Part shown: one piece after another, positions 1-3,000 of the stretch | Layout of the letters: every line of letters starts with the position of its first letter | How positions within the stretch are numbered: position 1 is the first letter of the stretch | Assembly (NCBI RefSeq): GCF_054482525.1 | Contig: NZ_JBTHVG010000006.1 | Direction: 5' to 3' (one strand) | DNA from: a plasmid | Length of the DNA stretch: 36,373 nt | Made by a program: the position numbers

Positions 1-3000
1 TAAAATGAAATGCTCATCTGTTTTTACTTCAACCACTAATCATGTTTTCACATTCGAACGAGTAACGCTTTGCACTATTATCCTTATGCATAAGGATACT
101 GGACAACAGTATGTTGTCATATTTACTGATAACAATAAAATTCGTGACTATAAAGCCGGAATTGTTCCTCAGTTTGGCGAACTTAAGCAGAGTGATGTTG
201 ATTTAGTCCTTTTCTACAGGGACGAATATGAAAAATATTTTGATTCATTAAAAGATGGCGATGAATGCTTGAGTTTTAAAGATTTTATTGAGTGTCTTTG
301 TTAAGCATTATGAATGCAGGGGCATCCCTGCATTTTCTGGAAATTTCAATATTGATTCTGAAATTGTCTATTAACATCAATGCAAGGGAAATTCATGAAA
401 ACGTTAAAACAAGCCGCAATGCAGTTTGCATCTGATCTGCGTAATAATCGCTGTTTTAAAGCTGCTTATAATGATGCTCTGTTAGAGCTTGATCGGGAAG
501 ATTTAAACGCCATTGTACAATGCACATTTCTTTTTGAGCCAAAACGAACATTAGCCGAACTTGATAAATTAATTAAAAAGATAGAAGTAGAAGAAGATTA
601 TGAGTTTTGTGTATCCCTTGATAAAGGTAAAGGATTACACGAAGTCAGAACATTTAAAAGTGAGCGTGAGGCGTTGGATGCTTATCGCATTTTGACTCTT
701 TACGGATACACAGTAACTATAGAAAAGAAGGAGGGTAATGACTGACTATTCAAGGTGTGATCAGGTTGTTCCACCAACCTGATCACGTTATCGACAATCA
801 AAACTGAATGAGGTTTTTAAATGTCAACGCGGCAGATCGTACAGCTTGCTGATTCCCTTGTCAAAGGCTGGGAAACCAGAATTCCGGCAATGAAATTTAG
901 CGAATGGGATCAATTCCGGTGGTGGTTAAACTACTTGCAAGGGTATGAAATGTTTTAAATAAAAAAAGGGGCTTTCTGCCCCTTTGTATTTTTTGACAAA
1001 AATGCCATGTGTAACTATAATTAGTTGCATATCTATAGGGGATGGATTTATGGGGAAAACAGATAAGCTACTGGCAAAGTTTTTAAACAGTAAAAAAACG
1101 TTTGAATGGGATGAACTGGTCGTTTTGTTTTCCTCTTTGGGATATGTCAAAAAGGAAATGCAGGGGTCAAGAGTGCGGTTTTTCAATGCTGAAATCAATC
1201 ACACCATATTAATGCATCGTCCACATCCGGAAAGTTATATCAAAGGTGGTACGCTGAAAGCAATTAAACAGAATCTGAAAGAGGCTGGATTATTATGAAA
1301 CATTTAAAATATAAAGGATATTTAGGCACGGTTGAACCCGATTTTGAAAATAATGTCCTGTATGGAAAACTGGCGTTTATTCGGGACCTGGTAACTTATG
1401 AGGCTTCTACATTAGCTGAACTGGAACAGGAGTTTAAAACATCTGTTGATCTGTATTTACAGTCTTGTGTGGAGGATGGAAAGGAACCTGATACCCCGTT
1501 TAAAGGCGTATTTAACGTCAGGCTTGATCCAGAACTGCATCGTCGGGTAGCAGAAATGGCGATGGAAGAAGATTTATCGTTGAATGCCTTTGTTAATAAG
1601 GCTCTGGAAAAAGAAGTCAGCAATCATCGCGCAGGGGCTTAATTGCCCTTGTTTTTATGCCCTGTAAGGGCATGGGAGGCGCTTTGCGCCGGAAGCCCCG
1701 CAGCGCAGCGAGGACTTAAAAAGCGTTACGGCTTCAGCCGTAACAATTCCCAGCCCTGCCAGGCCTGTTTTTTCTTTCACAAATCTTTCAGCTATACGTT
1801 TGCCTGATGGTCGAAGACGAAAGAATCTTTCAGCAACGAAATCTGGACATATGCAGCGACGATTTTATAGCCAGGCACAGTGCCACATATGGTACAATCA
1901 ATGCAGGATAGACAATCCGATGTCAAATGTTAACATTTGAATCAGATTGTCCAAAAACGATGTTTTTGCCTGTGCCTGCCGCAGGCTCTGTTGGGGTGAC
2001 TTATGAAGATGATAGCGTTCAGGCTAAGTGATGATGAGTTAAAATTTGCAGAACATAACGCTATTTTAAGTGGATTTACCAGTATCAATGCTTTTGCTAA
2101 GCATAACGTGCTTAATATTGAAACCAAGCCTGTTAACATCCCAGTTAATAATGAACCAGCAAAGCTGGTATCAGTGCGTCTTTACCCTCATGAAATAGAA
2201 CTTGTTAAACGTAATGCTGCTCTTCACGGCATGAGCATGAGCAGAGAAATTGCTATTCGTGTGCGTCAGTCTTTGTTAAAGAGTGAAGTCTGTCTTTACC
2301 CTGATGAAGTTAAGGAACTTAAAAAACTATCAACTGCTGTAGATCGTGTTGGTCGCAACATTCATTTTATCATAAAAGGTGAAAGATTCTGTACGGTTAA
2401 CGATCCAGATTTCAGAAAAGACGTTATTGAAGTGATTGAACTGTGTAAGCAAATTGATTCAAAACTTGAAACGTTAACCAAGAGTGTTGTTAACAGATTT
2501 GGGTGATTTATGGGTGTGTATGTAGAACAGGAATACCGTATTAAACGCGCTAAAGGGACTGGGCGTGATCCGAAATCTCCTAAGTTATCGGGAAGACATA
2601 TACATGCCAGTAAATCGGCTTTTAATCATAAAGTCAGACATGGTGCGGACAAGAAAGCATATACCTGGACACCTACAAAAGAAGTCACTTTTAAAATCAC
2701 TGGCTCAGGTAAAACAGCCGCAGGCATCAAAAATGGTATTGATTACATTACCCGTAATGGTGAACTTGAGGCTTACTGTTATGATGGAAAAGGTTCAGAG
2801 CAAACAGGGAAAGGAGAAGACTTTAATAGGGAGTTTACTTCAACTTTATCTAAAGGAAATGATTACTCCAGGACATATCGTGGAGAAAACATCGATCATG
2901 TGAAAAACATGGTCTTTTCACCACCACCAGAAGCTGGAGTAAGCAGGGAAGACGCTCTGAAAGCTACGGTAGAATTTCTTAAAGAGACTTATCCAAACCA

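Follow-up and report, generated by a model that had tools for sequence, protein, structure and literature searches.

Two inverted copies of a predicted origin of transfer on an IncX4 plasmid carrying mcr-1

Why does a plasmid carry the same 91-nucleotide (nt) sequence twice, in inverted orientation and 27.8 kb apart, and might both copies serve as origins of conjugative transfer (oriT)? The question is raised by a stretch of 36,373 nt, hereafter the window, from contig NZ_JBTHVG010000006.1 (NCBI RefSeq assembly GCF_054482525.1), which alignment to pWI2-mcr identified as a complete circular IncX4 mcr-1 plasmid opened at an arbitrary point. A first-pass annotation, made from the sequence alone, had described the two copies as oriT-like. 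In the present study, this description is consistent with the same layout in IncX1-X3 plasmids, an invariant nick core, a covarying hairpin, a relaxase of the MOBP class, and small relaxase-less plasmids carrying the sequence. We therefore consider it very likely that each 91-nt repeat is a conjugative oriT for the plasmid's own TaxA/TaxC relaxosome, and the IncX4 counterpart of the oriT-alpha and oriT-beta of R6K and other IncX plasmids.

The inverted repeat and its IncX relatives

A repeat search revealed a sole long inverted repeat in the window, with arms of 94 nt at 1899-1992 and 29794-29887 that are 99% complementary and 27,801 nt apart. Reading of both arms, together with BLAST against a sister plasmid, showed that the arms are exact over 91 nt (1899-1989 and 29797-29887), with a single mismatch at 1990 (G versus T), and the reverse-complement pair of 90 bp reported earlier was thus right to within one base. 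An exact inverted match of 91 nt within 36 kb cannot be attributed to chance. The core TATCCTGC is present as described, at 1903-1910 (minus strand) and 29876-29883 (plus strand), as is the perfect 18-bp palindrome TCAAATGTTAACATTTGA at 1923-1940, 12 nt from the core; this palindrome merely caps a longer, imperfect hairpin of 41 nt (1911-1951), which begins 7 nt from the predicted nick. Copy 1 has hicB on one side and taxA-taxC on the other, and copy 2 lies directly upstream of a gene for a DUF2726 protein, with taxA and the DUF2726 gene each reading away from its own repeat. A distance of 15-18 bp to the start codons had been proposed, and this holds for copy 2 (ATG at 29779 of the open reading frame 29252-29779, minus strand), whereas 11-14 nt separate copy 1 from the taxA ATG at 2003. 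No Rfam family matched either arm, and no origin is annotated at either copy in the plasmid records examined. The parts of the two copies are as follows, with a slash marking the predicted nick.

1899-1992, minus strand: predicted oriT copy 1, the taxA-proximal arm; functional unit 1899-1989; predicted nicked and transferred strand, minus; same borders in small plasmids and in a tandem duplication
1901-1911, minus strand: nic core CTATCCTG/CAT of copy 1; nick predicted between 1904 and 1903, positioned by analogy; block invariant in IncX1-X4
1911-1951, minus strand: hairpin 1, with lower stem GACAATC...GATTGTC and the palindrome 1923-1940 at its tip; base 7 nt 5' of the predicted nick; z = -6.35
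1952-1968, minus strand: hairpin 2, CAAAAAC-GAT-GTTTTTG; stem kept and loop varying among variants (GAT, GGG or TGA)
1974-1986, minus strand: distal GC-rich palindrome GCCTGC-C-GCAGGC at the gene-proximal end of the unit, retained even in degenerate Col(BS512) copies; candidate site for the accessory protein TaxA
29794-29887, plus strand: predicted oriT copy 2, the replicon-proximal arm; functional unit 29797-29887; predicted nicked strand, plus
29875-29885, plus strand: nic core CTATCCTG/CAT of copy 2; nick predicted between 29882 and 29883
29835-29875, plus strand: hairpin 1 of copy 2, the mirror image of 1911-1951

A perfect inverted repeat flanking a large segment might also represent the recombination sites of a DNA-inversion switch, with the 27.8-kb segment as the invertible part. 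However, the junction expected after inversion (hicB-repeat-ddp3) was present in 0 of 801 matching plasmid records, compared with 423 for the native junction, and no invertase gene adjoins either arm. On this count of junctions, an inversion switch was ruled out.

Several observations support the reading of the repeats as oriTs. First, the same arrangement is present across the IncX group. The long inverted repeats of R6K-type and other IncX plasmids have been published as oriT-alpha/beta and are characteristic of these plasmids, with one oriT near taxC and the other near the replication gene and ddp3 (PMC3402527; PMC3332091), in agreement with the two inverted oriTs that the first-pass annotation had mentioned for R6K; in the passages concerned, both papers cite Avila et al. 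1996 for the R6K oriTs. For comparison, one IncX3, one IncX1 and one IncX2 plasmid were used, the IncX2 plasmid having exact R6K iterons and standing in for R6K. Each of these plasmids has an inverted repeat of 108-111 nt with arms 95-98% identical, overlapping the starts of ddp1/taxA and ddp3. R6K (IncX2) oriT-alpha/beta and the IncX1-X3 long inverted repeats (pOLA52, R485, pECTm80) have the same two-copy inverted layout as IncX4, with one copy immediately upstream of taxA(ddp1)-taxC(ddp2) and a second, on the replicon side, immediately upstream of ddp3, and they share the core ATGCAGGATAG, a long hairpin with its base 7 nt from the predicted nick, and near identity of the copies within a plasmid. 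The differences are that the IncX4 unit has 91 nt and stops before the ribosome-binding site, whereas the longer IncX1-X3 repeat takes in the ribosome-binding site and ATG; that the hairpin sequences are unrelated, IncX4 adding the two small palindromes at 1952-1968 and 1974-1986; and that the ddp3 counterpart of IncX4 is a DUF2726 protein of 175 amino acids with a weak DDP3 match.

In the alignment of all eight copies (IncX1-X4), C.ATGCAGGATAG is the sole invariant block, and it is situated at the outer end of every repeat. The complement of this block is the RP4-type nick motif CTATCCTG/C, and the 9-mer CTATCCTGC is common to this complement and the RP4/IncP oriT, whose sequence was confirmed in the IncP plasmid pBS228, between traJ and traK. 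RP4 is nicked after CCTG, and nick regions of the MOBP class are also known in R64, pTF-FC2 and the Ti-plasmid borders. By analogy, 5'-CATCGGATTGTCTATCCTGCATTG-3' is the predicted cleavage sequence of TaxC, with the cut expected after CCTG.

In R6K-type plasmids, the corresponding repeats coincide with the replication origins alpha and beta, and TaxA, TaxC and Ddp3 were originally called "DNA distortion polypeptides" acting at these origins. The arms of the window might accordingly be secondary replication origins of the alpha/beta type, instead of or besides being oriTs. However, no iteron-like sequence is present near either arm, all six matches to the IncX4 iteron (at most 3 mismatches in 16 nt) falling within 33130-33255, and the Col-type plasmids that carry the unit have unrelated replication systems. 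We consider a replicative role of the arms to be very improbable.

Second, the hairpin next to the core covaries. The hairpins of IncX4, two IncX4 variants, IncX1, IncX2, IncX3, a Proteus relative and several small plasmids were compared. In single-strand DNA folds of the predicted transferred strand, the z score of the hairpin is -4.6 to -5.3 for IncX1-X3, along with the -6.35 listed above for IncX4. All nine lower-stem pairs (9/9) are kept in nine distinct hairpin variants, with compensatory double changes at pairs 2, 3, 4, 6, 7, 8 and 9, and the IncX4 variants swap the inner palindrome wholesale (TCAAATGTTAACATTTGA versus AAATTGCATGCAATTT). In every distinct sequence collected other than two degenerate Col(BS512) copies, 7 nt separate the base of the hairpin from the predicted nick; for the Proteus copy and the IncX1-3-type copy of the small plasmid pLAO21, the spacing was read from the sequence, as the minimum-free-energy fold adds outer pairing.

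The Proteus relative is Proteus mirabilis pPM73-KPC_48k, an IncX-related plasmid with a TaxC 40% identical and one oriT-like unit only (core at 167, minus strand), which has the same core, hairpin and 7-nt spacing; its ddp3 (46464-46820) is directly downstream of the relaxase gene. This plasmid may represent an ancestral state with a single origin, preceding the duplication that placed origin and leader ahead of ddp3.

Third, the relaxase belongs to the class that cuts such motifs. The MOBP-like motif III noted previously corresponds to a three-histidine motif in TaxC (YHDDKEDHPHVH / YHDDKEDHPHVHV), and the protein matches both MobP1 and Pfam Relaxase. The genes concerned are the following.

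2003-2506, plus strand: taxA (ddp1), relaxosome accessory protein; NCBIfam DDP1, 230 bits against a cut-off of 150
2510-3739, plus strand: taxC (ddp2), MOBP relaxase; NCBIfam MobP1, 404 bits against a cut-off of 200; Pfam Relaxase PF03432; HDDKEDHPHVH
14471-16333, plus strand: taxB, type IV coupling protein, from the annotation of an identical plasmid; type IV secretion system (T4SS) genes at about 4677-14484
29252-29779, minus strand: DUF2726 (Pfam) gene, probable distant homologue of ddp3, 175 amino acids; NCBIfam DDP3, 28 bits, E 1.7e-6, below the cut-off

The DUF2726 protein and IncX2 Ddp3 gave no pairwise BLASTP alignment, and the link between them is the weak NCBIfam profile match. The oriT of RP4/RK2 (IncP-1alpha) resembles the IncX4 unit in the 9-mer CTATCCTG/C, in an inverted repeat 5' of the nick on the nicked strand (8 nt away in RP4 and 7 nt from the predicted nick in IncX4), in accessory and relaxase genes that lie on the hairpin side, are transcribed away from the origin and are transferred last, and in the three-histidine motif of the relaxase. 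RP4 differs in having a single oriT, an unrelated hairpin sequence, and accessory proteins of the TraJ/TraK rather than the TaxA/Ddp3 families.

Small plasmids that carry the unit

The unit is not confined to IncX4 plasmids. Matches were observed in 740 PLSDB records, including 268 typed as non-mobilizable and 23 as mobilizable (291 in all), and in 492 of 5426 complete E. coli genomes, at 803 places on plasmids and 6 on chromosomes. Hundreds of relaxase-less plasmids of 1.5-4 kb carry the 90-nt unit with the same borders, and in several strains such small carriers share the genome with IncX4 plasmids. Examples are pABU (1566 bp, Col(MG828)), with 90 nt of the unit at 95.6% identity, the same borders and no co-oriented gene downstream; pLH09-a-F (1865 bp); and a recurrent plasmid of 4237 bp with two inverted copies of the unit, at 1103 and 4065. 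The last of these plasmids is without an annotated rep gene and also carries VirB-like, EexN and regulator genes. Widespread Col(BS512) plasmids of about 2.1 kb have two degenerate copies back to back (at 1400-1600 in a 2101-bp example), and their nick cores are about 50 nt apart with three GCATTATCCTCA repeats between them. In pLAO21 (NZ_OP242254, 2920 bp, Col(MG828)), an IncX4-type unit at 2629-2719 is followed by an unannotated taxA homologue, which runs from 2730 across the start of the record to 311 and is 60% identical to the TaxA of the window over 167 amino acids; this plasmid also has an IncX1-3-type unit at 330-400 in the opposite orientation, which apparently equips it for hitch-hiking on IncX plasmids of either kind.

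It is difficult to account for the spread of the unit on small plasmids that lack a relaxase if the unit is anything other than an origin of transfer. Relaxase-less "pOriT" plasmids have been described as a general pattern by Ares-Arroyo, Coluzzi and Rocha 2023 (PMC10123127), and the Col(MG828), Col(BS512) and 4.2-kb plasmids found here are similar to these hitchers in being small, lacking a relaxase and carrying a copy of a conjugative plasmid's predicted oriT, here the IncX4-type unit. Presumably, by the same analogy, they borrow the relaxase and T4SS of the conjugative plasmid. Two points differ from that study: its "R6K-like" oriT family was set by similarity to experimentally verified oriTs and may not take in the diverged IncX4-type unit, and some of the small carriers here hold two units, or one IncX4-type and one IncX1-3-type unit. 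A literature search on mobilisation between Col(MG828) and IncX4 plasmids returned nothing usable.

Rearrangements of the unit have also been observed at copy 1, to which the query for tandem duplications was directed (the equivalent of window 1872-1989; locus 399-581 of NZ_KX447768). Three otherwise near-identical IncX4 mcr-1 plasmids (NZ_KX447768, NZ_MH043624 and NZ_OK642377) differ in local tandem duplications, which comprise the whole 91-nt unit as a perfect tandem, 42 nt (ATTGTCC...CAGGCT), or 32 nt. The junction of the 32-nt duplication (pIncX4_LSP237/15), CAATG/CAGG, is compatible with the predicted nick but ambiguous over the 4-nt microhomology CAGG. Copy 1 may thus be a hot spot for duplication, either from slippage at the hairpin or from relaxase activity. 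The borders of the unit, CAATGCAGG...GGCTCT, are the same at both IncX4 positions, in the unrelated Col(MG828) and 4.2-kb replicons and in the tandem duplication, and are degenerate on Col(BS512); in addition, one duplication junction of copy 1 falls at the predicted nick, beside the pseudo-nick GCCTG/G. It is conceivable, although rather unlikely, that the 91-nt unit is a portable oriT cassette which is itself moved and rearranged by the relaxase. If so, strand transfer catalysed by TaxC between nick-like sites would create and spread origins.

Rival nick sites, and one origin or two

The close approach of both copies to a start codon had also suggested that the repeat might double as promoter or operator. 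In favour of this idea, both copies do abut a start codon and the IncX1-X3 repeat spans the ribosome-binding site and ATG, which makes a regulatory role in addition to that of oriT plausible; the promoter itself fared less well. A sigma-70-like match inside the unit, TAGACA-16-TGTTAACAT, agrees at 9 of 12 positions, is no commoner than in shuffled sequence, and is absent from one IncX4 variant and from IncX2. A stronger form of the idea holds that the repeats are purely a duplicated promoter, operator or 5' leader for taxA-taxC and the ddp3-like gene, with the nick elsewhere, at 3752-3785 or 1640-1775. The proximity to start codons, the span of the IncX1-X3 repeat and the sigma-70-like match fit such a leader, and an oriT-like inverted repeat reported in PMC6287198 maps to 3752-3785. 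However, the unit is complete in pABU and pLH09-a-F although neither has a co-oriented gene downstream of it, the invariant block is the relaxase nick motif and not a promoter element, and neither of the two other regions is duplicated or shared with small plasmids. A purely regulatory function is, in our estimation, highly unlikely.

Both alternative regions were considered and rejected as nick sites. The hairpin-rich region 1640-1775, named in the first-pass annotation as the place where the relaxase might cut instead, found no support: it is single-copy, lacks the core, is missing from the small plasmids, and reads as terminator-like hairpins after hicB. Immediately past the taxC stop, the region 3752-3785 holds the inverted repeat GCAGGTGAACAAAG...CTTTGCTCACCTGC; it is likewise single-copy and not shared with small plasmids, and is probably a transcription terminator.

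Several observations weigh against the repeats being IncX-type oriTs. Beyond the 12-nt core and a few isolated columns, no alignment of the IncX4 unit with the R6K-type unit is possible, and blastn with the IncX4 unit retrieves IncX4-type sequences only; full-length similarity to the R6K-type repeat, on which similarity-based oriT finders depend, is absent. Alignment to R6K/IncX oriTs, which had been suggested as a check, gave a core invariant in 8/8 copies but a diverged remainder. The IncX4 TaxC is only about 35% identical to other IncX relaxases, and TaxA about 25% identical to its IncX counterparts. The 8-mer YATCCTGY alone is not significant, with 8 matches versus 4.1 expected in the window, and was dropped as a stand-alone signal; the weight of the nick motif comes from conservation and context, not from the frequency of the 8-mer. 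The Col(BS512) copies are without the lower stem, and therefore either a perfect hairpin is perhaps not strictly required or these copies are dead. The assignment of ddp3 is weak (28 bits versus a cut-off of 140, no BLASTP match). Finally, no nicking, relaxosome or mobilisation data for an IncX4 oriT were found in the literature, and published oriTfinder results point elsewhere: one run found no oriT on an IncX4 plasmid (PMC10604428), and another reported an "oriT-like region" for the IncX4 plasmid pEC11b that corresponds to the repeat after taxC (PMC6287198). In our reading, oriTfinder misses or mislocates the IncX4 origin.

Herein, we propose a route of transfer from the two origins, for which we infer the nick position, the binding of TaxA and Ddp3, and the use of both copies. 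First, TaxA, possibly jointly with the Ddp3-like protein, would attach to the palindromic part of the unit and bring in TaxC. This MOBP relaxase would cut one strand at 5'-CTATCCTG/C-3', 7 nt 3' of the long hairpin, and remain on the 5' end. The coupling protein TaxB would then pass the relaxase-DNA complex to the VirB-like T4SS, and the strand would go over in the 5' to 3' direction, to be re-joined on a second encounter with the hairpin and nic sequence. Because the copies are inverted, the nick would fall on the minus strand at copy 1 (1904/1903) and on the plus strand at copy 2 (29882/29883), and with nicks on opposite strands either strand could be sent. Inverted rather than direct copies would also keep the intervening DNA from being lost when transfer starts at one copy and ends at the other.

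The two repeats split the circle into a 27.8-kb arc, with taxA, taxC, the T4SS genes, taxB, topB, hns, par, mcr-1 and the ddp3-like gene, and an 8.4-kb arc, with a pir-type rep gene, iterons at 33103-33278, a J-domain gene, small open reading frames and hicAB. The origins would point outward from the long arc, such that the 8.4-kb replicon arc (pir, iterons, J-domain gene, hicAB) would lead in either direction, while taxA-taxC and the T4SS genes would be the last to enter the recipient from either origin. The genes of the short arc are all transcribed toward the nearer repeat, pir (minus strand) toward copy 2 and the J-domain gene to hicAB (plus strand) toward copy 1; the incoming strand would therefore be the template on both sides, which is suggestive, not proof, of the use of both origins.

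An alternative is that a single copy is the functional oriT, most likely the taxA-proximal one, the other being kept for a different reason, for instance as a shared regulatory or leader sequence in front of the ddp3-like gene, or because gene conversion produced it in passing. The Proteus plasmid, with its one copy and with ddp3 downstream of the relaxase, indicates that one copy suffices, and the three independent tandem duplications are at copy 1, which is also the only copy that the query covered. On the other hand, the copies match at every one of the 91 nt, and the small hitch-hiking plasmids keep no more than this stretch. Within each of IncX1-X4 the pair has stayed 95-100% identical, while the four groups have diverged from each other. 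The orientation of the short-arc genes toward the nearer copy on both sides also argues against a single origin. Both R6K oriTs are reportedly functional, according to the title of Avila 1996. We consider a single functional origin to be unlikely, and favour two oriTs.

The host plasmid and the meaning of the predicted origins

The window is similar to hundreds of plasmids of 31-34 kb that are 100% identical in the region and are typed IncX4/MOBP/MPF_T (MOB-suite typing of the identical records), with mcr-1 present in many of these IncX4 records. Compared with pWI2-mcr, the window has an insertion of the IS91 family at 30038-31717 and a different 2.4-kb segment at 17039-19411, and IS26 is absent. 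The IS91-family insertion encodes a transposase of 399 amino acids (310 bits), is missing from pWI2-mcr, and lies 150 nt outside oriT copy 2, in the stretch that would lead the way into a recipient if transfer began at that copy. The segment at 17039-19411 encodes a thermonuclease-family protein and an AAA ATPase of 420 amino acids, as in some other IncX backbones, the IncX3 plasmid and an IncX4 variant among them.

Other repeats were also observed. Six 22-nt iterons with the core AAACATGAGAGCTTCC, at 33103-33278, mark the gamma-type replication origin. In the short arc, a direct repeat of 300 nt (33880-34179 and 35960-36259; 99% identity, spacing 2080 nt) encloses the J-domain gene together with three small open reading frames, and is native to the backbone, since pWI2-mcr has it too. 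A family of repeats of about 25 nt (GTGACATAC / ACATCA motifs) at 22994-25174, around a MipZ/ParA-like gene (24487-25134), is probably a partition site. A match to Rfam AgrB (RF02891; 58.7 bits) at 23329-23417, minus strand, presumably corresponds to the antisense RNA partner of dqlB, a dinQ-like type I toxin that sister plasmids have in their annotation.

The dual inverted oriT is very probably the known hallmark of IncX plasmids and thus expected biology; what is specific here is its diverged IncX4 version on an mcr-1 plasmid. The arrangement has been known since 1996 and, conceptually, nothing is added beyond it, while no explicit or experimental description of an IncX4 dual oriT was found in the literature. 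Worldwide, IncX4 plasmids rank among the chief carriers of mcr-1 colistin resistance, and failed conjugation of one of them has been blamed on a "missing oriT" (PMC10604428). The located origins and likely nick provide a defined target for mobilisation assays and conjugation inhibitors. In addition, the unit offers a search pattern for hitch-hikers dependent on IncX4, with about 290 PLSDB records now typed as non-mobilizable or mobilizable, and the hairpin variants constitute a natural series for the study of co-evolution between relaxase and origin.

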